Positions 12,571 through 63,485 of a stretch of DNA of 64,000 nt are shown in pieces. Position numbers and translations under genes: made by a program. How positions within the stretch are numbered: the first letter of the stretch is position 1; every line of letters begins with the position of its first letter. The stretch comes from Longimicrobiales bacterium (GTDB lineage Bacteria; Gemmatimonadota; Gemmatimonadetes; Longimicrobiales; Gaopeijiaceae), in the NCBI GenBank assembly GCA_965226625.1, contig CBDDDK010000001.1, forward strand, positions 36,910-100,909, given 5' to 3'. The notes under the pieces are model-generated. The model searched no databases and was not told the DNA's origin. It was given only the letters and a program-made list of their open reading frames with translations.

Positions 12571-13478
12571 CAGCCGACAGCGAGTCCGAGCCCGAGCAGT
12601 ACGCCGTAGACACCGACGACGCGGGCTGTCTCGCCCAGCGCCGGCAACAGTTCCACCGGGTCGGCATGCGTCAGGACGCGTCGCACGGGCGCGAGGCAGA
12701 GCGGAGCGACCAGCAGCGCGGCGAGCGAAGCCGCGGGCCAGCCGTACACGCGCCAGCCGACGACCGGAACGATGAACGCGACGAGCAGCATCATGAGGTA
12801 CTCGGCCTGCGAGCCGCGCGTGCCGAGCCGCACCGCGAGCGTGCGCTTGCCCGCTTTCGCGTCGGTCTCGATGTCACGCAGGTTGTTCGCCACTAGGATT
12901 GCGGTGTTCAGCGCGCCCAACGACGTACCCGCGAGAAGAACATCCGGCGGCCACGACAGGCCCTGTACGTAGTAGGTCCCGCTGACCGCGACGAGTCCGA
13001 AGAAGACGAAGACGAAGACATCGCCGAGCCCGTGGTACGCGAGCGGAATCGGTCCACCGGTGTACAGCACTGCGCACGCTAGTGAGGACAGTCCGATCCA
13101 CACGATCGGCCAGCCGCCCACCCAGACCAGGTACGTGCCGACGAGCATGGCCGCACCGAGCACGGTCCACATGCCGCGTTTCACGGTCTCCGGTGCGAGA
13201 ATTCCGGCCTGAGTGACCCTCGGCGGCCCGACACGATCCGTGGTATCCCCTCCGCGCACGAAATCATAATAGTCGTTCGCGAAGTTGGTCCCGACCTGGA
13301 TCAGAGTCGCGCCGACCAGCGCGGCGAACGCCGGAAAGGGGGCGAGCACACCGTCGTGAGTGGCCAAGGCAGTCCCGACCAGCACGGGGGCCAGCGCCGC
13401 TGTCAGGGTCTTCGGGCGAGCCGCCAGCAACCAGGCCTGCGCCCTGGTGACCTCGGGGACGGCTACCAGGGCAACCAC
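12570..13478 (-). CDS. menA: 1,4-dihydroxy-2-naphthoate polyprenyltransferase (UbiA family)
   Basis: 302-aa polytopic protein with UbiA-type motifs ([23 protein letters not shown]). Sits in men context. Confidence 0.85.
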
Positions 13479-14302
13479 GGATATTTCCGGAACTCAGGCT
13501 TTCGCTTCTCCAGGTATGCCCGCTGTCCTTCCTGTCCCTGCTCGGTCATGTAGAAGAGCAGCGTCGCGTTGCCGGCAAGCTCTTGAAGCCCAGCCTGGCC
13601 GTCGAGATCGGCGTTGAAGGCGCTCTTGAGCAGGCGAATCGCCAGCGGACTCTTCTCAAGAATCTCCTGCGCCCACGCCCAGCCCTCGTCCTCGAGCTGT
13701 TCGAGCGGCACCACCTTGTTCACCATGCCCATCTCGTGCGCCTCCGCAGCCGAGTACTGGTGGCAGAGATACCAGATCTCGCGGGCTCGTTTCTGGCCCA
13801 CCATGCGTGCGAGAAATGAGGAGCCGAAGCCCCCGTCGAACGAGCCGACGATTGGTCCGGTCTGGCCGAATACCGCGTTGTCCGCAGCCAGTGTCAGGTC
13901 GCATACGACGTGTAGCACGTGGCCTCCTCCGATCGCGTAGCCGGCAACGAGCGCGATCACCGGCTTAGGCATCGAGCGCATATAGCGCTGCAGCTCCAGC
14001 ACGTTGAGACGTGGCACTCCGCTCTTATCGACGTATCCGCCTTCCCCACGAACGCTCTGGTCGCCGCCTGCGCAGAACGCCCACTTGCCGTCCTTCGACG
14101 GCCCGTTGCCCGTCATCAGCACGACCCCAATGTGGGGGTCCTCGCCAGCGTCTCGAAACGCCTCCTGCATCTCGAGCAGCGTATCCGGGCGAAACGCATT
14201 GCGCACCTCTGGCCGGTTGAACGCGATGCGCGCAACACCGTCACACTTGTGGTAGGTGATGTCGTCGTACTGCTTGACCTCTTTCCAGTCGGGCTTGCTC
14301 AT
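13463..14302 (-). CDS. menB: 1,4-dihydroxy-2-naphthoyl-CoA synthase
   Basis: From ATG 14302: [39 protein letters not shown]...GGDQSVRG...[18 protein letters not shown]... Crotonase fold with the MenB C-terminus [19 protein letters not shown] overlap with the menD stop. Confidence 0.9.
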
Positions 14303-16080
14303 GGACGGCGTGGTGTCAGGGGTAAGGTGAACGCCTCGCGGACGGCGTCGGTCACCGCGTCGGAGACTTCCCGATGCCGCCGTACATTCGTCTCGCGGTC
14401 CGTCCGTACCCGCACGATACACGTGCGGCCCGATTCGAGCGCAACCGTGAGCGCCGTGTCGAGCTCGTCAATCTCTTCGTCGGAGAAGGCTATGTCGTAC
14501 ATCTCGGCGACGTGACGGAAGTCCAGGCCGTGAGGCGTAGCAAAGTACTTCGTAAACGCCGGCTCGTGCTCGGCGATTGGGAGCATGTGGAAGATCCCAC
14601 CCCCGTCGTTGTCGATCAGGACGAACACGACCGGCGCATCGGGCTCACGACTCCAGAGCAGGCCGTTCAGGTCGTGGAACAAGGCGACGTCACCAATCAC
14701 GCACACAGTCGGCTGCCCGGTCGCCGCTGCGACACCGAATGCTGTCGAGACGATTCCATCGATGCCGCTCGCTCCGCGGTTGCCGAAGACGCGCACGGTC
14801 TCGTCGCGAAGAACGCCGAATGCGTCGAGGTCGCGAATGGGCATCGAGCTCGATACGAAGAGGTTGGCTCCCTCGGGGACGGCGGCCAACACTGTCGCAA
14901 GCACGTCTCCCTCGTGCGGCTCGCCTCGCTCCGACTGGAGCGCTACCCGGACCGCCGACTCCGCCGACAACCACAGCTTACGCCACTCGTCACCGGCGCT
15001 GGCGCCTGCGCGCGCGGCCAACGCGGCAAGCGTATCGGCCGCATCGGCACGCACGTAGTCGGTCGCAGTGGCGCCGTGGTCCTTCCAGCGCCCTCCTCCG
15101 TCGATCACGATGTGCCGCACGCCGTCGTTGTGGAACAGCCAAGCCTGGAGCGCCGTGGAGGTGGGCGACGCACCCACGCGCAGCACAAGAGCTGGAGCGA
15201 GTGCCGCGTACACATCGGGGTCCCGCAAGAGCAGATCGTAGCCGTCGACAACGTGCGCCCCGCTCGACGGAGCAAATCGGGCCCCGGAAAGCGGGTCCGC
15301 CAAGAGAGGGAAGCCGGTCGCGGCTGCGAGGCGCAGCACGGCCTCACCGCTCTTCACCGGATCCGAACTCGGCCCGGCCACGATCACACCACGAGGTGTG
15401 TCCAACGCGCCGAGCAATGTGTCCAGTGCCTCGGAGGACGCCTGTCGCCGACCCGCTTCGACCTGCACGAACGCATCCCCACCAGACCTTCCAGCCTCCG
15501 CCAAAGAGTTCTTCTCGAGAAAGTCCCGATGCCCCTCGATCGGCTCGAACGGCCTATCGAGCGGGAAGTTCAGGTGCACGGGCCCCGGCGCGGCGCCCCT
15601 CGCGGCCGCGACCGCACGCACCGCGAGAGTACGGAGATGGCGTAGCGCGGCATCCTCCACGGAGGGCGGCGCGACCTCGAAGAAAGCCCTTGGGTACGGA
15701 CCGAACAGCCTCAGTTGGTCGATCGCCTGGTTCGCGTCCGAGTCGCGCAGGTGGTGCGGCCGATCTGCTGTGAGCACAAGCAGCGGCGCTTCGCTATGGG
15801 AGGCCTCGATTACTGCGGGAAAAGCGTTCGCCGTCGCGGTGCCCGAGGTCGTCACAAGCACGGCGGGCAGCCCCGAAGCCTTGCCGATGCCGAGCGCGAA
15901 GAAGGCGGCTGATCGCTCGTCGAGATGGACCCGCACGCTGAAGCGGTCGTCTGCGTCGAACGCCAGCACCAACGGCGTGGAACGCGAGCCCGGTGCTACC
16001 ACGACTTCGCGTACGCCCGCACGCGCCAACTCGTCACAGAAGGCACTAATCCAGAGGGTGGTGTCGGCGCCGCTACTCAT
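14299..16080 (-). CDS. menD: SEPHCHC synthase (2-succinyl-5-enolpyruvyl-6-hydroxy-3-cyclohexene-1-carboxylate synthase), ThDP enzyme
   Basis: From ATG 16080: [41 protein letters not shown]...[17 protein letters not shown]...[12 protein letters not shown]. The track ORF extends spuriously to 16401. Overlaps the menF end by 8 nt. Confidence 0.9.
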
Positions 16081-17491
16081 GACCGGTGCCGGGCACCTCC
16101 ACGGCGGACTCGGTGCCTCTGTTCCGACCCAACTCGGCTCCGGTCGACTCGAGCGCGCCGAGCATCGGCTCGAACTTGATGACGGTCTCCTCCCACTCGA
16201 GGGCGGGGACCGATCCCTCGACGATACCCGCCCCTGCGAAGAGACGCCAACCACGCCCTGCCGAGACGCCCGACCGGAGCGCTGGGGCGAAAATTCCGTT
16301 CCCCTCCGCGTCGAACCAACCGACGGGTCCCGAATACCACCCACGGTCGAACGCCTCCTGGTCTGCCAGAAGATCCATTGCGGCATCACGAGGCAGGCCA
16401 CACACCGCGGGGGTGGGGTGCAGAAGCCGAAGTAGGTCCAGGACCCCGACGGTCGCCGGCACGCTCGCGCGGATCTCGGTCTCGAGATGCTGGATGCGGG
16501 CCAACGTCAGCACATGGGGCTGTGGGTCGGCGCGGATCTGATGGCCAACCGTCTCGAGCCGCGCGATCATGTCATCCAGGGAGATGCGCTGTTCAACCCG
16601 GTCCTTTTCGCTCGCCAGGAGTTGAGTCGCCAATTCCGCCTGCTCGCGTGGAGTCGAACCACATCGGATCGAGCCGGCAACGGCGGTCGCGTGGAAGACC
16701 CCGTCCCTTAGCGTCGCGACGGTCTCCGGGGCCGCACCCACCAGCGCCGACTTCGGCTCCGGCTCGAACATGAAGACGTGGCTTCCGCGGTTGGAATCCC
16801 ATAGACGCGACACGACATCGACCGGATCGATCGCATCGTCGAGATCGACGTCCAGAGTACGCGCAAGCACGACCTTCGAGACACGCCCCTCGCGGATCGC
16901 GTCGAGCGATTCTTCGACCGCGCGCTTCCAATCGCCGCAGTCAGTCATGGTACGCCGGCCAGGCACCGAGCTCGGCGTGCGCGCCCGCGTATCCGTGAAC
17001 GTGGTCAGCTCGGCGCGTAGCGCCTCCGCGCGGTGACGGAGCCGCACAAGGACATCGCCCGACTCTTCATACGAGACGAACGCACGCGCGCGCAGCCAGG
17101 CATCGCCCGATCCGTCGCCCTCGAGCTCGAAGGCCGGCACCTGGAACAGCCAAGCTGGAAACGCCTGCCAGACCCCTTCCTGGCAGTGGTCTGCTCGAAA
17201 CGAAAAACCCCCATAGAAGCGGATCCGAGGTGCCCTCGCCGCCCCGGGCGGGAGAAGCGGGTCCGACGCGACCTCGTGCGCCAACGCGGCGACCAGCCCG
17301 TAGCGGTCCGTACCCGTCCGGGCATCGGGTCTGAGCTCGGCAACCACCCCCCGATGCGCCACCCACCGATCACCGCGCGCCCAAAACCCGCGGGCCTCTC
17401 CCGACGCGTGCTGGAGAAAGTGGTCAGGACGCAGATCCGGCGCGGGAATCGTCACGGTGGCGAGGCGACGGGCGCCAAGCGTTCGCTTCAA
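16073..17491 (-). CDS. menF: Isochorismate synthase
   Basis: 472 aa with chorismate-binding C-terminal motifs (LHPTPAVCGLPRD, RGWYSGPVGW, AGAGIVEGS). First gene of the men operon. Confidence 0.85.
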   Translation of the reverse strand: MKRTLGARRLATVTIPAPDLRPDHFLQHASGEARGFWARGDRWVAHRGVVAELRPDARTGTDRYGLVAALAHEVASDPLLPPGAARAPRIRFYGGFSFRADHCQEGVWQAFPAWLFQVPAFELEGDGSGDAWLRARAFVSYEESGDVLVRLRHRAEALRAELTTFTDTRARTPSSVPGRRTMTDCGDWKRAVEESLDAIREGRVSKVVLARTLDVDLDDAIDPVDVVSRLWDSNRGSHVFMFEPEPKSALVGAAPETVATLRDGVFHATAVAGSIRCGSTPREQAELATQLLASEKDRVEQRISLDDMIARLETVGHQIRADPQPHVLTLARIQHLETEIRASVPATVGVLDLLRLLHPTPAVCGLPRDAAMDLLADQEAFDRGWYSGPVGWFDAEGNGIFAPALRSGVSAGRGWRLFAGAGIVEGSVPALEWEETVIKFEPMLGALESTGAELGRNRGTESAVEVPGTGHE

Positions 17492-28418: not shown

Positions 28419-28509
28419 CGCGCTCTGCTTGCTAGCCCAGGATCGGGCTCTTGGGTATCGTTGTAGGCTTTAGTAAAACCGTCTGGGGACAGGGGAACAC
28501 GCCCGTCTG

Positions 28510-29460
28510 ATGTCGACCACACACTCCAATTCGAACGAGTGGGCCTTGATCCTCGGAGGCTCGAGCGGATTCGGCCTTGCCACGGCGCACAAGCTCTCTC
28601 GGCACGGCTCCAACGTCTGTGTCGTGCATCGCGATCGCCGGGGCGCGATGAAGCGCATAGAGCCGGAATTCGACGCGATACGCGGAAGGGGCGTCTCGCT
28701 GCTCACGTTCAACGCGGACGCGCTGAACGCGGAAAAACGCGACGAGATCCTGGACGCCCTCGCGGAGTCACTCGGAGCCGCTGGCAAGGTATGCGTGATG
28801 TTACACTCGATCGCCTTCGGCAACCTCAAGCTGATAGGCCCGGAAGGCGCTTCCGACAACGATGCGCGGGAGCGGTTGGCTGCCGCGATGCACGTCGACC
28901 CCCGGCAGCTGGCAGAGGCCGTCGACAGACTTTTCGAGCAGGGGGTGTATGGCCTGCAAGGCGTTAGCACCGCACCGCAATACTCCGCCGATGCGCTCCT
29001 CGAGGAGGAAGACATGGCGCGCACCATCCACTCGATGGGCACGAGCTTGCTCGGCTGGACTCAACGGCTCCGCGAGCGCGGCATGTTCGCTGACGACGCG
29101 CGCGTGTTTGGACTCACCAGCGAGGGCAACGCCGTTGCGTGGAAGGGGTATGCGGCAGTCGCCGCCGCCAAAGTCGCGCTGGAGTCCGTGTCCCGATCCA
29201 TCGCAGTAGAAATGGCACACTTCGGGATACGGTCGAACATCATCCAGGCGGGCGTCACGGATACGCCGGCGCTGCGCATGATCCCCGGGAGTGGGCATCT
29301 GAAAGCGCAGGCCGTGACGCGGAACCCATTCGGCAGACTCACCACACCCGAGGATGTCGCCAACGTGATCTATCTCCTGTCTCAGCCCGAGGCCGCGTGG
29401 ATCAATGGCGAGATCATTCGCGTAGATGGCGGCGAAGCGATTTCGGGGCTGTCACGATGA
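28510..29460 (+). CDS. SDR-family reductase, enoyl-ACP-reductase-like (Y-x6-K), with an internal insertion
   Basis: LILGGSSGFGLATAHKL dinucleotide motif. KGYAAVAAAKVALES has FabI/FabL-like Tyr-x6-Lys spacing. An insertion of about 50 aa (GPEGASDNDARERLAAAMHVDPRQLAEAVDRLFEQGVYGL...) is present. First gene of the coupled operon. Confidence 0.65.
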   Translation: MSTTHSNSNEWALILGGSSGFGLATAHKLSRHGSNVCVVHRDRRGAMKRIEPEFDAIRGRGVSLLTFNADALNAEKRDEILDALAESLGAAGKVCVMLHSIAFGNLKLIGPEGASDNDARERLAAAMHVDPRQLAEAVDRLFEQGVYGLQGVSTAPQYSADALLEEEDMARTIHSMGTSLLGWTQRLRERGMFADDARVFGLTSEGNAVAWKGYAAVAAAKVALESVSRSIAVEMAHFGIRSNIIQAGVTDTPALRMIPGSGHLKAQAVTRNPFGRLTTPEDVANVIYLLSQPEAAWINGEIIRVDGGEAISGLSR

Positions 29461-30452
29461 GCATGTACCTGCATGGGCTCGGGCACTTCCACCCCGAGAA
29501 CGAGATCACCAACGAGTTCCTCACCAGTCTGGACATCGGTTCCAACGCCCAGTGGATCGAGGAGCGCGTCGGCATCGAATCGCGCCGCACCGTGATGTCG
29601 CTCGACTACATCAAGGAGACGCTGAACCGCGACTTCACACAGGCCGCTGAGGCGTCCGAGTACACGCACGCCGAGACTGGCGGGCTTGCCTCAGAGATGG
29701 CGCTCCAGCGTGCGGGGCTCCAGGCGAGCGACATGGGCATGGTCATCGCCGGAAGCTGCAAGCCCGACTTCATGTCTCCTTCCGACGCATGCACGATTGC
29801 GGGACGGCTCGGCATCGAAGCGCCGTCGTTCGACATCAATTCGGCATGCACGAGCTTCCATGTCGCGCTCTATACACTCGCCATGATGAAGCCCGAAGCG
29901 CTTCCAGAGTTCGTGCTCGTGGTGACGCCGGAGACGGTGACGTGCTCGGTCGACTACTCGGACCGCACCGGAGCGGTGCTCTGGGGAGACGGCACGACAG
30001 CGGCGATTATCTCGACCAAGGTACCTTCCCTCATCCAGATCCTCGGCAACTCGATCGAATCGAGTCCGGCGGGGTGGGACAAGGTCACCATCGCTTCCAA
30101 CGAGCATTTCCGACAGGATGGCCGGACCGTCCAGATGTTCGCCATCAAAAAGACCGTACGCGTTCTCAAGCGGCTGCAGCAGGAGTTTGCCGATCCCGGC
30201 CGGCGTCTGCACTTCGTGGGGCACCAGGCCAACCTGAGGATGCTCGACGCCGTATGTCAGCGGTGCGAGATCACCGAGGACCTCCACCACAGCAGCGTAG
30301 TGAACTTCGGCAATACGGGCGCGGCCGGCGCCCCGGGCGTGGTCTCGATGCGCTGGGACGAGTGGCAACCAGGCGACGACGTCGCCTTGGTTGGTGTCGG
30401 TGCGGGTCTCACCTGGTCGGGACACCTCTACCGGTTCGGGGAGGCTTCGTGA
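29457..30452 (+). CDS. 3-oxoacyl-ACP synthase III (KAS III, FabH-like)
   Basis: MSMYLHGLGHF... with Cys/His/Asn triad contexts NSACTSFHVAL, FVGHQANLRM and NFGNTGAAG. ATGA overlap with the upstream stop. Confidence 0.8.
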   Translation: MSMYLHGLGHFHPENEITNEFLTSLDIGSNAQWIEERVGIESRRTVMSLDYIKETLNRDFTQAAEASEYTHAETGGLASEMALQRAGLQASDMGMVIAGSCKPDFMSPSDACTIAGRLGIEAPSFDINSACTSFHVALYTLAMMKPEALPEFVLVVTPETVTCSVDYSDRTGAVLWGDGTTAAIISTKVPSLIQILGNSIESSPAGWDKVTIASNEHFRQDGRTVQMFAIKKTVRVLKRLQQEFADPGRRLHFVGHQANLRMLDAVCQRCEITEDLHHSSVVNFGNTGAAGAPGVVSMRWDEWQPGDDVALVGVGAGLTWSGHLYRFGEAS

Positions 30453-31042
30453 CCTACGAGGACTTTCTGGCTCGGCCAAATCTCACGCAGGAGGAGGTTC
30501 TGGCCATGTCCTACGGACGTCTGATCGACGACCCGCCCGAGGACTTCAAGACCCGCCTCCCCGCCCCCCCTATGCTCATGGTCGACCGCGTGGTCGAGAT
30601 GACCGAAAACGGGCGCACAGGTAGTATCGTGGGCGAGAAAGACATCCGCCTGGACGATTGGTTCTTCCAATGTCACTTCACCGCCGACCCCGTGCAGCCC
30701 GGCTGCCTCGGAGTCGACGGGGTATGGCAGCTCATCGGCCTCTATTGCGCGTGGCGGGGAGCGATGGGTACAGGACGCGCGCTCGGCGCCGGCGAGATCG
30801 ACTTCTTCGGGCAGATCCGCCCACACGACAAACTCGTGCGCTACGAAATCGACATCCTCCGCTACCAGGCCCTACCCAAATCCGGCTCCGCGGTCGCCAT
30901 CGGCGACGCCCGGGTGATCGTGGACGGCGAGGAGATCTACACGATCAAGCGCGCCAAGGTCGGTGCCTTTCTCGACATCGACTATGCCGACTATCCGTAC
31001 CCGAGCGCGCGATCGCGCGGCGGCAAGATGGAAGCGGAATGA
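30449..31042 (+). CDS. fabA: FabA-type 3-hydroxyacyl-ACP dehydratase / trans-2,cis-3-enoyl isomerase
   Basis: GTG start (GTGA overlap). LPAPPMLMVDRV...WFFQCHFTADPVQPGCLGVDGVWQL contains the FabA His and Asp active-site contexts. Confidence 0.75.
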   Translation: MTYEDFLARPNLTQEEVLAMSYGRLIDDPPEDFKTRLPAPPMLMVDRVVEMTENGRTGSIVGEKDIRLDDWFFQCHFTADPVQPGCLGVDGVWQLIGLYCAWRGAMGTGRALGAGEIDFFGQIRPHDKLVRYEIDILRYQALPKSGSAVAIGDARVIVDGEEIYTIKRAKVGAFLDIDYADYPYPSARSRGGKMEAE

Positions 31043-31515
31043 GCGACGCTTGCGCAGGGGTGGTACTCACGCCCAAAGAGGTGTTCGAGCTGCTTCCCCA
31101 GAAAGACCCGTTCCTCTTCGTGGACGAAGTCCTGGAAGTCTCCGACGAGCACATCGTCGCCTGCTTCACGTTCCGACATGATCACGACTTCTACCGTGGC
31201 CACTTTCCGGGCCGCCCGGTAACCCCTGGTGTGATCCTGCTGGAGAGCCTCGCTCAGGTCGGCGTCGTCGGACTCGGCCTGTACCAGATCGCGCGCGATC
31301 AGGGGCGCGACGCAGTGCTCGACGCGTTAGCGCTCTTCACCGACGCCAACGTCGAGTTCACCGGTCTCGTGAGTCCCGGGGACCGCGTGACCATCCGCGC
31401 AGACAAGGTCTTTTTCCGGCGCGGCAAGATCCGCTCGGAAGCCGAGATGACGCTCGAAGACGGCGCCGTCGTTTGCTCAGGAACAATCTCGGGCATGGGA
31501 GTCCCCCGGCGGTGA
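31039..31515 (+). CDS. fabZ: FabZ-type 3-hydroxyacyl-ACP dehydratase
   Basis: ATGA overlap. LPQKDPFLFVDEV...YRGHFPGRPVTPGVILLESLAQVG hot-dog motif. Confidence 0.75.
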   Translation: MSDACAGVVLTPKEVFELLPQKDPFLFVDEVLEVSDEHIVACFTFRHDHDFYRGHFPGRPVTPGVILLESLAQVGVVGLGLYQIARDQGRDAVLDALALFTDANVEFTGLVSPGDRVTIRADKVFFRRGKIRSEAEMTLEDGAVVCSGTISGMGVPRR

Positions 31516-32789
31516 ATCGACGCGTGGTCATCACAGGCCTGGGCGTCGTCGCCCCGAACGGCAATGGACTCGAGGCCTACGAAGCCGCGCTGCGTGCGGG
31601 CGTTTCGGGGATCCGTCACATTCCCATTCTGGAGGAGCTGAAGTTTGGCTGCACGGCCGCTGGTGTGCCTCAGGAAACGGACGCGATCGCCGACGCGTAC
31701 TTCGACGAGGACGAGCTGCTCGCAATGAACTCCAGCCACCGCTTCGGCTGCATCGCGGCGGTGGATGCTTGGACTGACGCCGGATTCGCGCGCCCCGACC
31801 GCGAAGACGATCACGTCTACTGGGAGGCCGGCGCGGTGATCGGCACCGGCGTCGGCGGGCTAGACACCGCGGGCGAGAAGCTCGTCCCCATGACGGATGC
31901 CGCCAAGGTGCGCCGCCTCGGCAGCACGATCGTCGAGCAGATCATGGGCAGTGGAGTCTCGGCCCGCATTTCAGGCTTGCTGGCGCTCGGCAACCAGGTC
32001 ACGTCCAACTCGAGCGCGTGCAGCACGGGCGCCGAGGCAATCGTGGACGGGTACCAACGCATCCAGAACGGTCTCGCGGACCGCATGTTGTGCGGCGGTA
32101 GCGAAGGGGCGAGCCGCTACATCTGGGCGGGCTTCGACGCGATGCGCGTGCTCTCCCGAAAATTCAACGACGAGCCAGAGAAGGCTTCTCGACCGCTATC
32201 CGCCTCCGCCGCCGGGTTCGTGCCGGGCAGCGGTGCCGGAGTCGTCCACCTCGAGAGCCTCGACAGCGCCCAGGCACGAGGTGCGAGGATCTACGCCGAA
32301 GTGCTGGGCGGCTCGATTAACTGCGGCGGACACCGTCAGGGCGGGAGCATGACGGCACCTAACCCCACGAGCGTACGGCGCTGCATCCGCCAGGCGGTCG
32401 CGGCTGCGGGTATCGAGTCTGACGAGATCGACGCCATTAACGGCCACCTCACGGCCACCGGGGCCGACCCAAACGAGGTCGAGTCCTGGGCAGCCGCGCT
32501 CGAACGCACGCCGGAGAACTTGCCGCTCATCTGCTCGACGAAATCCATGATCGGGCACGGCCTGGGAGCCGCCGGAGCGATGGAATCAGTGGCATGCATC
32601 CTCATGCTGCGGGGTGGCTTCGTGCACCCGTCGATCAACTGCGAGGATGTGCACCCCGAGATCGAGCCGTACGCCGCCTCGATCCCCCACGAGGTCGCGG
32701 AAACGCCCGACTTGCGCACAATCATCAAGGCCGGCTTCGGCTTCGGCGACGTGAACGTATGCGTGGTCTTCCGTAAGTGGTGCGACTAA
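31512..32789 (+). CDS. 3-oxoacyl-ACP synthase I/II (FabB/FabF-type KAS)
   Basis: GTG start at 31512 (GTGA overlap) gives VNRRVVITGLGVVAPNG. Cys-His-His contexts SSACSTGAEAI, NGHLTATGAD and KSMIGHGLGAAG. Confidence 0.85.
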   Translation: MNRRVVITGLGVVAPNGNGLEAYEAALRAGVSGIRHIPILEELKFGCTAAGVPQETDAIADAYFDEDELLAMNSSHRFGCIAAVDAWTDAGFARPDREDDHVYWEAGAVIGTGVGGLDTAGEKLVPMTDAAKVRRLGSTIVEQIMGSGVSARISGLLALGNQVTSNSSACSTGAEAIVDGYQRIQNGLADRMLCGGSEGASRYIWAGFDAMRVLSRKFNDEPEKASRPLSASAAGFVPGSGAGVVHLESLDSAQARGARIYAEVLGGSINCGGHRQGGSMTAPNPTSVRRCIRQAVAAAGIESDEIDAINGHLTATGADPNEVESWAAALERTPENLPLICSTKSMIGHGLGAAGAMESVACILMLRGGFVHPSINCEDVHPEIEPYAASIPHEVAETPDLRTIIKAGFGFGDVNVCVVFRKWCD

Positions 32790-32838
32790 CCTTAGTCTTT
32801 ACGTCCGCAATATCGAACCGATAGGAGCTACCACGCCC

Positions 32839-33084
32839 ATGGATCAGAGTGAGATCCGCGCCAAGATTCTTCAAATCATCAGCATCTATGCCAAAAACAA
32901 GGATGCCGTAGTGTCGGCAACGGACGAGACGAACATCCTTCAGGACCTGAAGGTGAACTCGGCGCGGCTGGTAGACGTCATCCTCGACTTGGAAGATGCC
33001 TTCGACATCGAGGTCGACGACGAAGACGCCGACAACGTCAACACTATCGGAGACGCCATCTCCCTCATCGCTGCCAAGATCTGA
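32839..33084 (+). CDS. Acyl carrier protein
   Basis: 81-aa acidic protein. LQDLKVNSARLVDVILDLEDAFDIEV carries the phosphopantetheine Ser in helix-II context. Confidence 0.85.
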   Translation: MDQSEIRAKILQIISIYAKNKDAVVSATDETNILQDLKVNSARLVDVILDLEDAFDIEVDDEDADNVNTIGDAISLIAAKI

Positions 33085-33092
33085 CCCTCAAG

Positions 33093-33848
33093 ATGAGTCT
33101 GCCTGCCGCAACGCGCTTCAACCTCTTCGTGCAACGCGAAGTCGGCCGGCTTCTGTCCGTCGTTTGGATTCCGGCGTCTGCCTTCATCCTAAGCGTCATC
33201 ATGCGCTATCGCGTTCGAGACGTCAGGGACCTGCGCCGGCGGTTCCGCACACTCGTTAGGGCAACCGACAAGCCAATCCTGATCTGCCCCAACCATCTCA
33301 CCATGGCCGATTCGGCGTTGGTGACATGGGCACTGGGCGGGTCGTGGTGGTATCTGTTCCACTACCGCTGGGTGCCGTGGAACCTGCCCGAGTACCACAA
33401 CTTCGCTTCGGTGTGGCTCAGCCGAATGGCCGCGTGGGCGACCAAGTGCATCCCGATTGTGCGCGGAGGTGAGCGCGCACAGGTCGCGAAGGTGCTCAAG
33501 CGCATCCAGCACGTCGTTTCGCGCGGTGAGACGGCGATCATCTTCGCGGAGAGTGGTCGCAGCCGGACCGGCCGCATCCAGATGGAGACGATCGCACACG
33601 GTATGGGCAGGATCGTGAATTCCATCCCCGACTGCCACGCGCTATGCGTGTACCTGCGTGGCGACCGGCAGGATAGGTGGTCGACGATCCCGAAGCGGGG
33701 CGATTCGTTCTACGTGGATTTCGAGGTGTTCCGCCCCGAGTCCGACAACTCCGGCATCCGCCGCTCGCGTGACTTCGCGATGCAGATCGCAGACCGCCTG
33801 GTGCAGCTGGAGGAGAAGTACTTCGCGCGACAGCGGGCGACCGCCTAG
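33093..33848 (+). CDS. Lysophospholipid acyltransferase (LPLAT/PlsC-family) acyltransferase
   Basis: HX4D motif PNHLTMAD, block III FAESGRSRTG, and an N-terminal membrane helix. Starts 8 nt after the ACP stop. Confidence 0.75.
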   Translation: MSLPAATRFNLFVQREVGRLLSVVWIPASAFILSVIMRYRVRDVRDLRRRFRTLVRATDKPILICPNHLTMADSALVTWALGGSWWYLFHYRWVPWNLPEYHNFASVWLSRMAAWATKCIPIVRGGERAQVAKVLKRIQHVVSRGETAIIFAESGRSRTGRIQMETIAHGMGRIVNSIPDCHALCVYLRGDRQDRWSTIPKRGDSFYVDFEVFRPESDNSGIRRSRDFAMQIADRLVQLEEKYFARQRATA

Positions 33849-34109
33849 CGGCCCACCGGCGAATCGAGCTAGGTGCAGGCCCTCGCCCCAAGGCCCACAA
33901 TGAAGCCTCCTAATCCCAACGAGTTGGGCTACCCGATGTGGACATATCACATTGTCAATGGTCGATCAACAGATATACGGGAAGATTGGGTTTCGGCGGT
34001 TGCCGTCCGACGCCAACCCGCGGAATAATGCCGGTATGAACCAGGGAATCGGACCCGCGACAAAGTCGGGTAGGAAGGCAGAACGCACGTCGGCGGCGAG
34101 TCCGCCTTG

Positions 34110-35303
34110 ATGTGGCCGTGCAAGGGCCTCGACTTCAGTTGGGAAGACTGGTTCTTCGCGCTCGAGTCTTCGCTCGCCCCGCCTCGCCGCCAGACCGTGG
34201 GTGCCCGGGTCGAGCGGATCTGGTCCGAAGGGGGTGACGCGATCGCCTGCCTCAACGTGCGCTCCGCATTCGACCTCTTCCTGCGATCGATGCAATGGGA
34301 CGCGGGCGACGAGATCATCTTCTCTGCCGTCACGGTACCCGACATGCCGGTGGTCGCACGGTACCATGGTCTGCGCACTGTGCCGTTGGACATCGACCCG
34401 ATCACGACCGTGTGGGACGTCGCTGAGCTCGAGGCACTGATCGGTCCGCGTACGCGGGCCGTCGTGCTCACGCATCTCTACGGAGCTCGACTCGACGTCG
34501 AGCCCACCGTCGAAGTCGCTCGGCGTCGGGAGATCATGGTGATCGAGGACTGCGCAGAGGCGTACGCTGGCCCGGCTTGGACCGGGCACGCCGAAGCGGA
34601 CCTCAACCTCTTTTCCTTTGGCCCCTTGAAGACGGCGACCGCGGTCGGAGGAGGCCTGGTGCGCGTGCGCGATGCCGGGCTACGGAAGCGAATGCGCTCG
34701 ATCATGAAGGGCGATCCGGTACAACCCACGCGCGAGCACCTCTGGCGGCTGATCATCTATGGCGCGCTAAGAGCCTCCACCAACCCTCACCTCTTCGGCA
34801 TGTACATCGCGGTCCTGAGAGCACTGGGGGTCGACCACCAGGAGCTCATCCACAGGCTCACACGTAGCGTCAGCGGCGAGGATCTGCTCACCAGAATTCG
34901 CCGGCAGCCGTGCGCAGCCTTGCTGGCCCTTCTCGAGCGCCGCCTATACGAGGGGGACGCCGCAATCTCGCGGCGGACCGAGTTGGGCCGTACGCTCTTC
35001 GAAGCCTTGGGACCGGAAGTTGATCTACCGACACGGGAGGTCGATACCCATAGCTATTGGTTGGTGCCGGTTCTGACATCCGAACCCGAGGGGCTCGCTC
35101 GCGAGCTCCGCAGCGAAGGCTTTTATCCGATGTCAGGGCGACTAGCGGTGGTTAGGGACAGCCGCGCTCCGGATACCGCTTCGCCCGGTGCGCAACGGCT
35201 CGTTACAGGGAGTGTGTACCTCCCCTTCGATCCCCAGATGCCAGGGCAAGAGCTGAAGCGCCTGGGTGGAATCGTGACCGCAGTTGCGCAGAACACCCCG
35301 TGA
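34110..35303 (+). CDS. DegT/DnrJ/EryC1/StrS-family PLP-dependent aminotransferase
   Basis: GDEIIFSAVTVPDM, VVLTHLYGARLDV, VIEDCAEAYAG and LFSFGPLKTATAVGGG (PLP Lys context). The track start TTG 34107 is immediately followed by ATG 34110. Confidence 0.7.
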   Translation: MWPCKGLDFSWEDWFFALESSLAPPRRQTVGARVERIWSEGGDAIACLNVRSAFDLFLRSMQWDAGDEIIFSAVTVPDMPVVARYHGLRTVPLDIDPITTVWDVAELEALIGPRTRAVVLTHLYGARLDVEPTVEVARRREIMVIEDCAEAYAGPAWTGHAEADLNLFSFGPLKTATAVGGGLVRVRDAGLRKRMRSIMKGDPVQPTREHLWRLIIYGALRASTNPHLFGMYIAVLRALGVDHQELIHRLTRSVSGEDLLTRIRRQPCAALLALLERRLYEGDAAISRRTELGRTLFEALGPEVDLPTREVDTHSYWLVPVLTSEPEGLARELRSEGFYPMSGRLAVVRDSRAPDTASPGAQRLVTGSVYLPFDPQMPGQELKRLGGIVTAVAQNTP

Positions 35304-35447
35304 CGACATTTCCGTGGTGAGATCGACGTTTCGAGCGCCACGGCCGTTGACGGAACGCCGAGCGAGCGGAGGCGGGCGTGACCCAAGGCTCACACGACTG
35401 GCTCGGGGACCTACGCATGCGGTGGACTCAGAGCCCGTCCCGATACC

Positions 35448-36134
35448 ATGACCGCTGAAGACGTCGAACGCTTCGAGGAGATCGGTCGGGGCCTCGACGA
35501 GCTCGTCCACATCGCGTGGCAGAAGCGGGCATTCGATATAGTGTTGTCCTTGCTGCTGATCGTAATCTTCTCGCCGATGATCGTGTTGATCCTGCTGACG
35601 ATCACGGCGGACGGGCTGCTCGTCCCGGGGCACCGAGGGCCCCTCTTTCTGACCGAGGACCGTGGCTCGGAGGGCGAGATCTTCCACCTGCCCAAGTTTC
35701 GGATCATCCGCATGGATGCCTTCTGGAGAATCCGCAAGACGCAGAAGCACCAGCACATCAAGCCCATCGAATCCGACCCGGACAACGTCACGAGAGCTGG
35801 CGCCATTCTGAAGCGGTTCTACCTCGATAAGTTGCCGCAGCTGTTCTCTATCCTGAAGGGCGACATGAGCTTCGTCGGCCCACGCCCCTGGCCACTCGAG
35901 CCGTATTACGAGGAACTCGAGAAAGGGATCTTCAGAAAGCGACTGATACGCCCAGGGCTCACGGGGCTCGTGCAAGCCAACAAGGGCGTCACAGGCGGCC
36001 CCGACGAGTGGGCCCTGGACTTCACGTATATCGGCTTCATGCACGCCGAGCGAAACGGATGGGCGAAGCTCGCCTTCGACCTGCGGGTGCTGACACGCTC
36101 TACGAAGACGGTGTCCGAGGGGAAAGGGTTGTAG
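35448..36134 (+). CDS. Polyprenyl-phosphate sugar-1-phosphate transferase (Bac_transf, small PglC/EpsL/WbaP C-terminal type)
   Basis: QKRAFDIVLSLLLIVIFSPMIVLILL re-entrant helix, LPKFRIIRMDA, and DKLPQLFSILKGDMSFVGPRPWPLE. Confidence 0.8.
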   Translation: MTAEDVERFEEIGRGLDELVHIAWQKRAFDIVLSLLLIVIFSPMIVLILLTITADGLLVPGHRGPLFLTEDRGSEGEIFHLPKFRIIRMDAFWRIRKTQKHQHIKPIESDPDNVTRAGAILKRFYLDKLPQLFSILKGDMSFVGPRPWPLEPYYEELEKGIFRKRLIRPGLTGLVQANKGVTGGPDEWALDFTYIGFMHAERNGWAKLAFDLRVLTRSTKTVSEGKGL

Positions 36135-36256: not shown

Positions 36257-38862
36257 ATGCGCGACACATCTAGGGTGAACGCAGATGGAACGCTACGCTC
36301 CGTGCGGTCTCGGGCGGCTGGGACGACGCGGGCGCTGCTTACGATCATCGCCCTCGTCGCCTGCTCGCCACCCTCGATGCTCGCACAGACCGCTGACCAA
36401 GGGGAGGTCGTGGCCGCAGGCGAGCGCTATCGCGCTGGAGCATTCCATCGGTGGATCCTAGGCCGACACTACCGCGATGTGTGGACCCAGACCATCCGGG
36501 TGGAGCCACTCGACCTGTCGTCGTTCGCAGGGGGACTCGAGCCGCTCCGCACCGGCGGAGGGCGACAGACGAGATCCTTGAGGTTCGCGGGCGCGGACGG
36601 TAGGGAGTACGCCTTCCGCTCCGTCGACAAAGACCCCTCGGCCGTCCTCGACCCACTTCTTCGCGGGACGGTCGTCAACGAGCTCGTTCAGGACGGAATC
36701 AGCGCGGCCCACCCCTACGGCGCGCTGGTCGCGGCGCCGCTCCTGGAAGCCGCGGGAATCCTGCACGTGGAGCCCCAGCTCAGGATCATGCCGGATGATC
36801 CCGCGCTCGGGGAGTTCAGGGAGGAGTTCGCCGGCGTACTGGGACTCATCGAAGAACGCCCGGACGAGAACGAGGGAGACCGAACATCCTTCGCTGGGAC
36901 TGCCCGCGTGATCGCCAGCGAGACATTGACCGAGCGCCTCGATCGGGGCCCGCGTGACCTGGTAGACAGTGAAGCGTTTCTCACTGCACGACTCGTCGAT
37001 GTCTTTCTCGGCGACTGGGATAGGCACCGGGGACAGTGGCGGTGGGCGACCTACAGCGAGACGGAGCCGAGGACATGGCTGCCCGTGCCGACCGATCGTG
37101 ATCAGGCTTTCTCGAAGTTCGACGGCGCTGCAACCCGAATCGTGAGCTTGTACATGCCGCAGTTCGTTCGCTTCGAGGAAAGCTACCCGGACATCACGCG
37201 ATTGCACTGGAATGGGCGGGCCTTGGACCGGTGGTTCTTGTCCGGGCTCGAACGACCGGTGTGGGACTCAGTGGGGACCGCACTGCAGGCGCGACTCACT
37301 GACGACGTGATCGAAGAAGCCGTCGGGCAGCTGCCGTCCGAGATCCACGCCCTCGGCGGTGAGGAGCTCGCCCGCACGCTGAGAGTGAGGAGGGACCACC
37401 TCGACGAAGCTTGGCACGAGTTCTACCGACTGCTCGCCGGCAAGGTCGACATCCACGCCACCAGCGCCGACGAGGTGCTCGTGGTTGATCGCTCGGAGTC
37501 GGGTCGCGTCGGTGTGACGATCACCGCGCCCGATCACTTGGAAGCACCATATTTTCAGCGTCGCTTCGACGCGACGGAAACGGACGAGATCAGGATCCAC
37601 TTGGAGGGCGGCGATGACCAGGTAGTAGTGAGGGGCGGTGCCCGGTCGGATATCGCGGTCCGGATCGTCAGTGGAGCAGGAGACGACCGCTACGAATTCG
37701 CTTCGGACGGGCAGCGAGTACGACTCTACGATTACGAGGGCGACAACCAGGTGTCGGGCAGCGGATCCCAGCCGATCGACGACAAGGAGTTCGACGAGTA
37801 GGTCTGGAGCGAAGAGGACCGTGATCAACCCCGCGATTGGGGCAGCAGTACGCAGCCGATCTTCTGGTCTACGTATTCGTCCGATCTCGGACCCTTCCTG
37901 GGGGGTGGTGCCCACTTGGAGCGCTACGCTTCCGAAAGCCACCGTACGCATCGGCGTTCGACCTCCGAGGCGGGTACACGCCGACCCTCGGTAAAGGACG
38001 GGCTGAGATCGAGGGACACCTGAACCAGGAGAACTCCGCGGTCTTCTGGACGTTGGGGGGCCGTATCTCACGGCTGGACGTCCTCCACTATTTCGGGCTT
38101 GGGAATATGGCGTCTCCCGGTGCACAATCGTACCACAAGGTCGACCAGACAGCAGCCTCTCTCGCGCTCGGGCTCGGCGTCTCGCCAAGCCCCCGATTCG
38201 TGTTCTCGGGTGGCCTAGAGCTCGAGCGGATCAGCACAGACGACAACGCCGGGCGCTTCTTCAGCACTTTGGGCTCGATCTACGGCGACGGCCGATTTAT
38301 ACAGCTCGCAGCTACTGCTAGCCTCGTGCTGGACCCGCTCATCGATTCCGAGACCACCGGTAACCGTATCCGTGTCTCGCTCACCGGCACGGCCTTCCCG
38401 GAACTCCTGGACGTCGAGCGAAAGTTCGGCAGGGCCGGCGCCGAAGTATCCACTGTGTTGGCGCCCTCTCTCGACCCCTGGATTTCGCTCGCACTGCGGG
38501 CGGGTGGTGAGCGGGTCTGGGGTCGATTTCCCTGGTATGAAGCGGCCTTCCTCGGAGGTACGTCGACGATCCGCGGATGGGCCGACCAGCGCTTCGCCGG
38601 AGATGCGGCCGCCTTCGGAAGCACTGAGATCCGTCTCCGGATGTGGCGGCCTAGGGTCGTCGTGCCTGTGGGGATCGGTGTCTTCGGCTTAGCGGACGCG
38701 GGGCGCGTATGGCTTGATGGGGCCTCACCCGGAGGATGGCATACCAGCCTTGGCGGAGGTCTCTGGTTTCAACCGGTGAGTCAGCCCTACTTGGTTCGCG
38801 CAGGAATCGGAGTTAGTGACGAGTCCACGAAGTTCTTCATCATTCTCGGGCTGCCGTATTAG
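36257..38862 (+). pseudogene. Large secreted protein with a C-terminal Omp85/surface-antigen-like beta-barrel; in-frame TAG plus a frameshift
   Basis: Signal ...LLTIIALVACSPPSMLAQ. The frame stays plausibly coding across TAG 37799-37801 (..DDKEFDE*VWSEEDRDQPRDWGSSTQPIFWSTYSSDLGPFLGGGAHLERY). It must then shift at about 37928 to join ..(G)FRKPPYASAFDLRGGYTPTLG... (track ORF 37837..38862), which ends in ...GLPY. Confidence 0.55.
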
Positions 38863-52294: not shown

Positions 52295-52626
52295 CGAGCG
52301 CGGCACGCGCGAGCCACCAGCTCCACTCGCGACTACATGTTCATGGTCACGCCGGATCAAGGAGATGCGATGCCTATCCGAGCTACGCGTTGATTCTAGG
52401 GTGCGATACAATATCTTAGCCAAGACTAACTTAGGTACGCGTAAATCTTTAATTAGTCTGCACTATTTGCATCGTAGCGTAGATAGCGAGCTGGACATGG
52501 CCGACGACACAACGCTCTCGCGGTCCCATGAGGACTACCTCAAGGTCATCTACGACCTCCAGGCTCGGTTCGGTGTCGCGCAGACCAACGCTATCGCCAA
52601 AGTGCTGAACCTCACGCCCCCATCTG

Positions 52627-63190: not shown

Positions 63191-63485
63191 CCTCGGGGCT
63201 GGAGTCGGTGCCTTGATAACGTCCGACCGCTGGGAGGAGGTCCCCCTCGAGGGACTGGTGGTGAGCCTCGCCCCACAGCGTGACGGTCGGCCTGCGCTCG
63301 GGTTCTCGGTCGGGTTCTAAGCCGATCGAATCAGTCTCGATATGCCCCGGGGGTGGCTCGGTCGCCATATTCGTACGAAGCACTAGGTCTTCCTGCCCGC
63401 AGAGGGTACATGCGCTCGTTCTCTCAAGCCGTCTCTCCCACCCGGATCGCCACGGCCTTGGGGATCGCGGCGCTGCTCGCTTCCA

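Follow-up and report, generated by a model that had tools for sequence, protein, structure and literature searches.

What is served by a compact set of fatty-acid synthesis genes that carries its own carrier protein and its own acyltransferase? The question is raised by a locus of a Longimicrobiales bacterium (Gemmatimonadota), which lies in a 64,000-nucleotide stretch of contig CBDDDK010000001.1 (assembly GCA_965226625.1, positions 36,910 to 100,909). This stretch is called the window below, and coordinates are counted from its first nucleotide. An initial annotation, made from the letters alone, read seven same-strand genes at 28510-33848 as a type II fatty-acid synthase (FAS)-like operon with a private acyl carrier protein (ACP) and an acyltransferase of the lysophospholipid acyltransferase (LPLAT) type. 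That description of the operon, which looks co-transcribed, is borne out by gene order and junctions, and the same gene order was found in about 90 independent loci, far beyond chance. Judged from homology and synteny, the seven genes probably make up a second, compact fatty-acid synthase that brings along a carrier protein and a lipid acyltransferase. The type II FAS would be an accessory, horizontally spread cassette that makes unsaturated fatty acids by an oxygen-independent route and feeds them into glycerolipids. We put the probability of this reading at roughly 55%. The annotation had gone further and proposed that the operon, together with an aminotransferase and a sugar transferase downstream, makes an acylated aminoglycolipid; this part of the proposal did not hold up.

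Organization of the locus

All nine predicted open reading frames (ORFs) are found on the plus strand where the initial annotation had placed them, and gene calls on a public contig of 99.9% identity give the same boundaries. Profile searches of the proteins against Pfam and NCBIfam confirmed the family of each of the nine genes. The features of the locus are listed here, with the seven cassette genes first.

28510..29460, plus strand: FabL-like short-chain dehydrogenase/reductase (SDR) of the enoyl-ACP reductase type, 316 aa (Pfam adh_short_C2, Enoyl_reductase)
29457..30452, plus strand: 3-ketoacyl-ACP synthase III (KAS III, FabH-like), 331 aa (Pfam ACP_syn_III, ACP_syn_III_C)
30449..31042, plus strand: FabA-type 3-hydroxyacyl-ACP dehydratase/isomerase, 197 aa (NF003509)
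31039..31515, plus strand: FabZ-like dehydratase (hot-dog protein), 158 aa (FabA-domain Pfam match)
31512..32789, plus strand: elongating KAS I/II, 425 aa (ketoacyl-synt N- and C-terminal domains)
32839..33084, plus strand: private ACP, 81 aa (PP-binding)
33093..33848, plus strand: cassette-specific LPLAT, an acyltransferase resembling glycerol-3-phosphate acyltransferase (GPAT) and acylglycerol-phosphate acyltransferase (AGPAT), 251 aa (PF01553)
33849..34109: intergenic stretch of 261 nt, missing from the related locus L001
34110..35303, plus strand: DegT/DnrJ/EryC1-family pyridoxal-phosphate (PLP) aminotransferase, 397 aa, a lineage-specific neighbour (PF01041)
35448..36134, plus strand: small monotopic phosphoglycosyl transferase (PGT, Bac_transf), 228 aa, with an altered catalytic dyad (PF02397)
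28419..28509, plus strand: intergenic region before the cassette, containing a conserved promoter-like block, TTGCTAGCC...CTTGGGTATCGTTGT
36257..38862, plus strand: disrupted gene outside the cassette, product ~868 aa, weak C-terminal Omp85/ShlB-like barrel

The 4-nt overlaps at 29457, 30449, 31039 and 31512 are present, and the KAS-ACP and ACP-LPLAT gaps measure 49 and 8 nt. The DegT and PGT genes do follow downstream on the same strand, at gaps of 261 nt (LPLAT to DegT) and 144 nt (DegT to PGT). The DegT start is called at the ATG at 34110; the ORF list holds an alternative TTG at 34107. The absence of FabD and FabG held when the whole 64-kb window was searched by tblastn, which returned no homologue of either, and a phosphopantetheinyl transferase (PPTase) homologue sought in the same way across the 64-kb window was not found.

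Conservation of the cassette across phyla

A scan of one genome per species gave 80 loci with a relative of the LPLAT (numbered with an L below), which were compared by tblastn and ORF clustering; synteny counts are restricted to loci with enough flanking sequence. In the Gemmatimonadota loci the order SDR-KAS III-FabA-FabZ-KAS-ACP-LPLAT is invariant, with ACP present in 21/21, KAS, FabZ and FabA each in 19/19, and KAS III and SDR each in 17/17. The counts for other phyla are 55/56 (ACP), 51/52 (KAS), 50/50 (FabZ), 43/46 (FabA) and 45-49/51 (PPTase), and the FabA motif is present in 42 related loci. At most loci the LPLAT gene is followed by one for a PPTase. In Gemmatimonadota it is usually of the ACPS superfamily and ~200-260 aa long (15/18 loci, from Pfam and public annotation).

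Syntrophales, Spirochaetes/Leptospiraceae, Desulfobacula, Binatia and Oligoflexia have fuller cassettes, extended by a FabD-like malonyl transferase, a FabG-like ketoreductase and a PPTase that is Sfp-sized (200-260 aa) and not AcpS-sized. One typical order is FabD-SDR-FabA-FabG-FabZ-KAS-ACP-LPLAT-PPTase, and a second is FabD-ACAD-KAS III-FabA-FabG-FabZ-KAS-ACP-LPLAT-PPTase, where ACAD stands for an acyl-CoA dehydrogenase. The order KAS III-FabA-FabZ-KAS-ACP is also seen in Spirochaeta and Alkalispirochaeta loci (L057, L060, L061, L069). A minimal cassette, consisting of the enoyl-reductase-type SDR, FabA, KAS, ACP, LPLAT and PPTase without FabZ, KAS III, FabD or FabG, is present at L098 (5912-10339), which suggests an irreducible core of these six genes.

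Between phyla, identity is 59-66% for the KAS and 56-61% for the SDR. The distribution is patchy over unrelated phyla, and the cassette has probably passed horizontally between them. In the loci compared, the cassette is not accompanied by conserved genes for export, glycosylation or tailoring. A search for relatives outward from a 'Syntrophus aciditrophicus' metagenome-assembled genome (MAG) and sequence clusters returned only MAG-derived proteins with generic names. The nearest homologues of the window's own LPLAT and SDR come from MAGs annotated as Longimicrobiales, Palauibacterales or Gemmatimonadota.

The cassette genes are under strong purifying selection: against three relatives, dN/dS lies between 0.08 and 0.32 and is mostly <=0.2. 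The region directly upstream of the SDR gene is conserved as well. The block TTcCTAG-N15-CTTnGGTATccTTGT is near-invariant in 10 Gemmatimonadota loci despite differing upstream genes. In the window it lies at 28430-28470, and it also precedes the SDR gene in L002, L003, L006-L016 and L021. It would be the cassette's own promoter. Promoter and terminator scans over the locus gave signals at chance level, and an Rfam search of the upstream block and the conserved leader that follows it in some loci matched no family. This leader, of ~100 nt, is found after the block in one sub-group and is lacking in L013. The TAnnnTTG part of the block is reminiscent of a Bacteroidetes-type -7 element.

Condensing enzymes, dehydratases and carrier protein

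With the exception of FabA, the FAS proteins of the window score below the housekeeping NCBIfam equivalog cut-offs. The same holds for the proteins of the Syntrophales and Leptospiraceae cassettes, save one FabD that passes.

The FabA-type dehydratase/isomerase is recognised by NF003509 at 201 bits (cut-off 124); the older model TIGR01749 gives 172 bits, under its cut-off of 238. Full-length identity to E. coli FabA is ~50%, and the protein matches the E. coli, P. aeruginosa and other structures at E 1e-41 to 1e-43. The catalytic His (CHF) and Asp (GVD) are kept, in FFQCHF...PGCLGVDG compared with FFGCHF...PGCLGLDA in E. coli. By these measures it is probably a bona fide FabA, with a predicted isomerase role. 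Its neighbour carries the His/Glu motif HFPG...LLES expected of a FabZ-type dehydratase and has a FabA-domain Pfam match (E 2e-16). It scores 83 bits with the FabZ NCBIfam model (cut-off 113), and public annotation also records weak ApeP-like and ApeI-like matches.

Both condensing enzymes have the catalytic residues that had been read from the sequence. The Cys/His/Asn triad of the KAS III is intact and aligns with FabH structures, at 185 bits with the NCBIfam fabH model (cut-off 249). Relative to solved FabH structures this protein has an N-terminal insertion of ~18 residues (aa ~48-66), which the Syntrophales copy has likewise. The KAS I/II has its Cys/His/His triad, aligned to structures, and scores 300 bits against 494 for the fabF equivalog and 252 bits against 630 for FabB. 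FabF structures (200 bits) and FabB structures (188-191 bits) are equally distant from it.

The ACP falls below the cut-off of all NCBIfam ACP models (at most 52 bits, cut-offs 66-70), as do the cassette ACPs of three phyla. It reads VNSARLVD where the canonical DSL site would be. The form VNS(A/S)RLVD takes the place of DSL in 44/45 cassette ACPs from several phyla.

The reductase slot

The initial annotation had described the SDR as enoyl-reductase-like, with Tyr-x6-Lys and an insertion of about 50 aa, and had raised as an alternative that it is a ketoreductase. The residues are Y214-x6-K221, which align with the Y-x6-K of B. subtilis FabL (3oic), and the window SDR has no Y-x3-K. The former spacing is the signature of FabI/FabL and the latter that of classical SDRs (PMC9260719). 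The insertion is also present, but measures ~60 aa (aa 104-165); in an AlphaFold2 model (pLDDT 73.5) it forms two helices between beta-4 and alpha-4. The protein matches Pfam adh_short_C2 at E 5e-39 and, weakly, a ketoreductase (KR) domain. FabL is its best NCBIfam match (119 bits, under the cut-off of 328), and 3oic is its best sequence match in the PDB, where the other top matches are Thermus FabI and a dienoyl-CoA reductase. It is best described as a divergent relative of FabL with a ~60-aa insertion and not as a FabL orthologue. Modelling had been suggested as the way to decide between the two reductase types. A model was obtained, but the fold search returned generic SDR matches only and did not separate them.

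The comparison of loci is more informative on this point. Outside Gemmatimonadota the reductase slot is filled by the SDR at 16 loci and by a three-domain ACAD at 27, with both at none and neither at 2. The best NCBIfam match of the slot ACAD is the reductive acryloyl-CoA reductase AcrC. An example is the 399-aa protein of L039 (4355-5554), one of the Syntrophales-type loci (L023-L079). This ACAD may serve as an enoyl-ACP reductase, or it may partner FabA as a back-tracking acyl-ACP dehydrogenase. Since both the SDR and the ACAD act on the C2-C3 bond, the displacement of one by the other supports an enoyl-reductase role. The fuller cassettes hold a separate FabG-like reductase beside the SDR, which argues that the SDR is not the ketoreductase. 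Taken together, these features support assignment of the SDR to the enoyl-reductase type and argue against a polyene product.

The alternative, in which the SDR is a ketoreductase and the module, having no enoyl reductase, builds a polyene-like chain as aryl-polyene clusters do, could draw on the indecisive fold search and on the weak KR-domain and ApeI/ApeP-like Pfam matches. It is contradicted by the Y-x6-K signature and the FabL, FabI and dienoyl-CoA reductase matches, by the FabG-like KR next to the SDR in fuller cassettes, and by the mutual exclusion of the SDR and the ACAD that occupies its slot at 27 loci. In addition, aryl-starter, methyltransferase, LolA/MMPL and glycosyltransferase genes are missing from the cassette. 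We consider this alternative highly improbable.

The acyltransferase

The HX4D motif on which the acyltransferase had been recognised is NHLTMAD, and it is invariant in 30 homologues. The protein matches PF01553 at 43.5 bits (threshold 23), and the family consensus combines NHLTMxD with a block III of the EGGRSRTGR type. We take the latter to resemble the GPAT/PlsB block III that binds glycerol phosphate, and treat this as a lead only. The best NCBIfam match is the acyl-ACP-dependent acyltransferase Aas. The PlsC-subfamily model TIGR00530 gives 21 bits against a cut-off of 103, and the protein is not a member of PlsC (AGPAT). A sequence search of the PDB found no relative of the LPLAT. An AlphaFold2 model (pLDDT 81) has a sole significant fold match, human GPAT1 (E 4e-5).

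A single-sequence HMMER search of 1.84 billion representatives retrieved 345 at E<=1e-3 and 96 at E<=1e-30, so the LPLATs of the cassette form a separate small clade. In every context examined, except L065, the gene follows the KAS and ACP genes, and the remotest relatives that could be placed (27-30% identity) still lie within a cassette, one of them in the minimal form. The donor is predicted to be acyl-ACP, and the acceptor would be glycerol-3-phosphate or a lysophospholipid.

The aminotransferase and sugar transferase downstream

The initial annotation had linked the cassette to the DegT and PGT genes. In that proposal the private FAS supplies the LPLAT, which stands in for the acetyltransferase of a PglC/D/E-like pathway. 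An amino sugar, formed by the DegT protein and mounted on a polyprenyl phosphate by the PGT, would be N-acylated by the LPLAT, and a long-chain acylated aminoglycolipid would result. Co-occurrence of the fab set with the LPLAT, DegT and PGT genes was examined from the LPLAT side (80 loci) and from the DegT side (9 loci) and was not supported. A DegT gene follows the LPLAT at 2/18 Gemmatimonadota loci and 0/46 loci of other phyla (64 loci with enough downstream sequence), and a PGT gene at 2/15 and 0/29. A relative with a 90%-identical LPLAT has neither, and carries instead a SnoaL-like gene on the minus strand and a Sortilin/BNR gene. The window LPLAT is orthologous to the LPLATs of cassettes that have no DegT, and its block III is still of the phosphate-binding type. 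The position of the PGT varies: it adjoins the DegT gene, lies beyond a Sortilin/BNR gene, or stands beside transposase fragments. Near DegT/PGT there is no gene for a dehydratase, a left-handed beta-helix acetyltransferase, a flippase or a glycosyltransferase. As a general property of the cassette the aminoglycolipid is rejected by synteny from both sides, and it persists as a clade-specific possibility of low probability.

Within that clade there are points in its favour. Both genes lie downstream on the same strand, and in L001 they are packed against the LPLAT gene, with a gap of ~20 nt and a 4-nt overlap between DegT and PGT. All nine close DegT relatives recovered from JGI metagenomes (77-96% identity) stand directly after this LPLAT (9/9), so the adjacency is stable, yet limited to one sub-clade. 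The DegT protein keeps its catalytic (Schiff-base) Lys, and its gene has a dN/dS of 0.14-0.32 against the same three relatives. Its closest structure is a perosamine synthetase (93 bits), and all NCBIfam equivalogs are far under cut-off. There is a small chance of a local functional link of DegT within the window's sub-clade.

The PGT is similar to the catalytic domain of WbaP and to PglC (dN/dS 0.27-0.28). At codon 128 (window 35829) it carries E128K, the sole residue that differs from the public contig, and LDELPQL becomes LDKLPQL. L001 and the public contig have LDELPQL, the motif in which the catalytic Asp-Glu dyad of monotopic PGTs lies, so the dyad is altered in the window. The PGT gene is interrupted in the L003 and L093 relatives (internal stop or split alignment; an internal stop in L003), a gene for a 1051-aa Sortilin/BNR protein lies between DegT and PGT in the L003/L092 lineage, and transposase fragments follow the PGT in L001. 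Unless these changes are assembly errors, the PGT appears to be decaying.

Compared with L001, each of the two gaps is enlarged in the window by a unique insert, 258 nt in the first and 144 nt in the second. The inserts (33849-34109 and 35304-35447) are not repeats, and 33849-34109 is unique in the window and in the loci. In this last interval the scan picked up a single promoter-like match (34000-34029), no better than expected by chance, and nothing resembling a terminator. DegT and PGT are best seen as later, lineage-specific neighbours that the cassette does not require for its function. The replacement of the acetyltransferase by the LPLAT is left unsupported by the lack of co-conservation, the altered dyad and the absence of sugar-pathway neighbours, and we regard the aminoglycolipid as quite improbable.

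Proposed function and alternatives

What marks the oxygen-independent route to cis-unsaturated fatty acids is the pair of FabA and an elongating KAS. In the accessory cassette that we favour, the KAS III would start chains and the KAS I/II would extend them on the private, divergent ACP. FabZ or FabA would dehydrate each 3-hydroxyacyl intermediate and the FabL-like SDR would reduce the enoyl intermediate. At mid-chain, FabA would isomerise the trans-2 to the cis-3 form, and the double bond would be kept. The GPAT/AGPAT-like LPLAT would then place the finished chain from acyl-ACP on glycerol-3-phosphate or a lysophospholipid, giving a membrane lipid. All of these steps are predicted from homology. 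The Longimicrobiales cassette has no FabD or FabG, nor, in the window's sub-clade, a PPTase, and would therefore have to borrow these from a second fab locus elsewhere in the genome. One alternative offered by the initial annotation, an anaerobic unsaturated-fatty-acid module with unrelated neighbours, comes closest to the evidence; the module appears to be accessory and horizontally spread, however, and not housekeeping as had been supposed.

Several points weigh against this reading. The separate canonical fab/acpP locus is itself deduced from the missing FabD and FabG and from the scores under cut-off. An ordinary unsaturated-fatty-acid pathway has no obvious need for a private ACP, PPTase and acyltransferase. 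The three would suit a module that has to function once transferred to a foreign host. The match of the LPLAT to GPAT1 is weak (template modelling score 0.48), and the fold search with its model returned no PlsC structure at a significant E-value. The literature searched yielded no biochemical characterisation of a cassette member, and the chain and acceptor are predicted from homology. Orthology to an operon of Coxiella burnetii, described below, is putative and is drawn from gene order, donor phyla and published best hits. Lastly, the DegT gene shows constant adjacency to the LPLAT in its sub-clade together with purifying selection.

The locus might instead be the primary housekeeping fatty-acid and phospholipid operon, fabL-fabH-fabA-fabZ-fabF-acpP-plsC, with FabD, FabG and AcpS encoded elsewhere. 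The gene set is near-complete here and complete in other phyla, conservation is very high under purifying selection, the promoter-like block is conserved, and the SDR family is abundant in metagenomes (>7,600 proteins at E<1e-30). However, the ACP, KAS, KAS III, FabZ and SDR are all well under the NCBIfam cut-offs, in the Syntrophales and Leptospiraceae copies too, and the ACP has no DSL motif. The PPTase of the cassette is Sfp-sized (200-260 aa) and not AcpS-sized, and the LPLAT family is tiny and stands apart from the bulk of PlsC. The occurrence over unrelated phyla is patchy, at 56-66% identity between them, and the equivalent operon of Coxiella coexists with an ancestral FAS. A housekeeping role seems unlikely on this evidence. 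The same features that argue for a channel apart from bulk FAS (private ACP, PPTase and acyltransferase) would suit a type II counterpart, split into separate proteins, of the Pfa-type 'secondary lipid' synthases. It would load a polyunsaturated or unusual chain straight into a distinct membrane lipid and keep it out of the ordinary monounsaturated fatty-acid pool. The parts of the full cassette (FabD, enoyl reductase, FabA, FabG, FabZ, KAS, ACP, LPLAT, PPTase) match those of such systems, which unite a ketosynthase (KS), a malonyl/acyl transferase (MAT), ACP, KR, a FabA-like dehydratase, an enoyl reductase, an Sfp-type PPTase and an AGPAT; the FabZ-like protein has its weak ApeI/ApeP-like matches, and the ~60-aa SDR insertion is unexplained. 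Against this, the cassette has a single elongating KS with no chain-length-factor (CLF) partner, its FabA is closely related to the E. coli enzyme from end to end, genes for export, glycosylation or tailoring are not part of its conserved surroundings, and the Coxiella literature expects monounsaturated fatty acids. A polyunsaturated or unusual product is in our view doubtful. Tentative, too, and rather unlikely, is a closed channel in which the private ACP, an Sfp-type PPTase, an enoyl reductase (the SDR with a lid-like insertion, or a reductive ACAD) and the GPAT-like LPLAT would install a distinct chain in a specific membrane lipid. Under that scheme the Longimicrobiales sub-clade would have been rewired by loss of the PPTase and gain of DegT, and could yield an amino-modified lipid.

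Flanking sequence and variation

The public contig is ctg125574 of ENA ERZ28763718 (3.83 Mb), which carries an identical LPLAT sequence and is 99.89% identical to window 23093-43848. Over the 20.7 kb compared there are 22 substitutions and one indel. The 5.3-kb cassette accounts for 2/23 differences, both synonymous, and the 2.6-kb outer-membrane-protein-like gene downstream for 6/23, including a nonsense change and a frameshift. This gene (36257-38862) is a single 868-aa ORF in the public contig; in the window it is split by TAG in place of TGG at 37800 and by the loss of 1 nt near 37927. The 868-aa protein has a lipoprotein-like signal and, apart from weak C-terminal ShlB/Omp85-like matches, no Pfam domain. 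In L001, two transposase fragments stand before the same 868-aa-type gene.

Two 1349-nt copies of an IS3-family element (52626-53974 and 61843-63191), 100% identical and inverted, each carry a 376-aa ORF with an rve integrase core and a helix-turn-helix. The pair encloses 7.9 kb, a layout like that of a composite transposon. Unrelated to the cassette, minus-strand genes at 12570-16506 resemble those of the menaquinone pathway (a UbiA-family prenyltransferase, a MenB-type ECH_1 protein at 239 bits, and a 735-aa thiamine-diphosphate enzyme).

Significance

The cassette is a widespread and largely undescribed variant of type II FAS, the core of which had earlier been recognised in Coxiella, solely from homology. 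The enzymes FabA and FabB were long regarded as limited to the alpha- and gamma-proteobacteria, and a 2009 paper states that their homologues are encoded only there (PMC2700279). What are probably bona fide FabA proteins are now seen in Gemmatimonadota, Syntrophales, Spirochaetes, Desulfobacula, Binatia, Oligoflexia and probably Acidobacteriota. The cassette seems to arrive self-sufficient, since a carrier protein, an activating enzyme, a reductase and a lipid acyltransferase come with it. Should the accessory-cassette reading be correct, it would explain oxygen-independent synthesis of unsaturated fatty acids in many uncultured lineages and give context to the acquired second FAS of Coxiella burnetii. 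It also offers three testable enzymes: an enoyl-reductase-like SDR with an insertion, an ACAD apparently in the enoyl-reductase slot, and a small, cassette-exclusive GPAT-like family. The cassette provides no evidence for a new acylated aminoglycolipid.

Comparison with known systems

A literature search for the full cassette found no description, and the core operon of Coxiella burnetii is the closest system. Moses et al. 2017 (PMC5423948) reported that CBU_0038-0034 encode FabH, FabA, FabZ, FabB and ACP, that a deltaproteobacterium or a spirochaete donated these genes as one block, that the arrangement recurs in Spirochaeta africana (consecutive accessions AFG38316-38318), and that transposon hits in CBU_0035 and CBU_0038 lower intracellular growth. 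A 2026 preprint (10.64898/2026.05.14.724635) places this operon within a larger lipid gene cluster, describes the cluster as giving Coxiella, next to its ancestral FAS, a second one that serves unsaturated fatty acids, and finds the nearest relatives of the Coxiella FabA in spirochaetes and Thermodesulfobacteriota. The operon of Coxiella and Spirochaeta africana shares its core gene order and its phyla with the cassette of the window type, and its function, too, has been assigned by homology only. The Coxiella publications do not mention an enoyl-reductase-type SDR, a cassette-specific LPLAT, a PPTase or the alternation of SDR and ACAD. The window copy differs in being in Gemmatimonadota and in having no FabD, FabG or PPTase. 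The clusters recovered by comparative genomics of ladderane synthesis were also considered and differ from the cassette.

The likeness to the E. coli FabA-FabB system consists of a FabA that is ~50% identical over its full length, the His/Asp site and a paired elongating KAS. In E. coli, however, fabA and fabB are scattered and use the housekeeping AcpP, FabI and PlsB/PlsC, whereas the cassette is one operon with a private ACP, enoyl reductase, LPLAT and usually a PPTase. With B. subtilis FabL the window SDR has in common the Y-x6-K spacing, the upstream Ser and the Rossmann Gly motif, but identity is only ~22%, the score is 119 bits against 328, and ~60 aa are added between beta-4 and alpha-4. 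The PglC/PglD/PglE and EpsL/M/N pathways resemble the locus in having a DegT-family aminotransferase and a small monotopic PGT beside an acyltransferase gene. The window differs from these di-N-acetylbacillosamine (diNAcBac) pathways in that no left-handed beta-helix acetyltransferase or 4,6-dehydratase is adjacent and DegT/PGT are not co-conserved.

Two further systems share the principle of a dedicated carrier. The Pfa-type synthases have a dedicated carrier, an Sfp-type PPTase, a FabA-like dehydratase, an enoyl reductase and direct hand-off to a glycerolipid acyltransferase. They are multidomain type I megasynthases with tandem ACPs, a KS/CLF pair and the PPTase PfaE, and in myxobacteria an AGPAT domain; the cassette is made up of separate type II proteins, only one of them a KS of the elongating kind. 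The acpXL-fabZXL-fabF2XL-fabF1XL-lpxXL cluster of Rhizobium has no FabA, enoyl reductase or KAS III, and its LpxL-family transferase places a very-long-chain hydroxy fatty acid on lipid A. Its logic is nevertheless the same as that of the cassette: a dedicated acyltransferase is supplied by a private ACP that has a dehydratase and KAS enzymes to itself.

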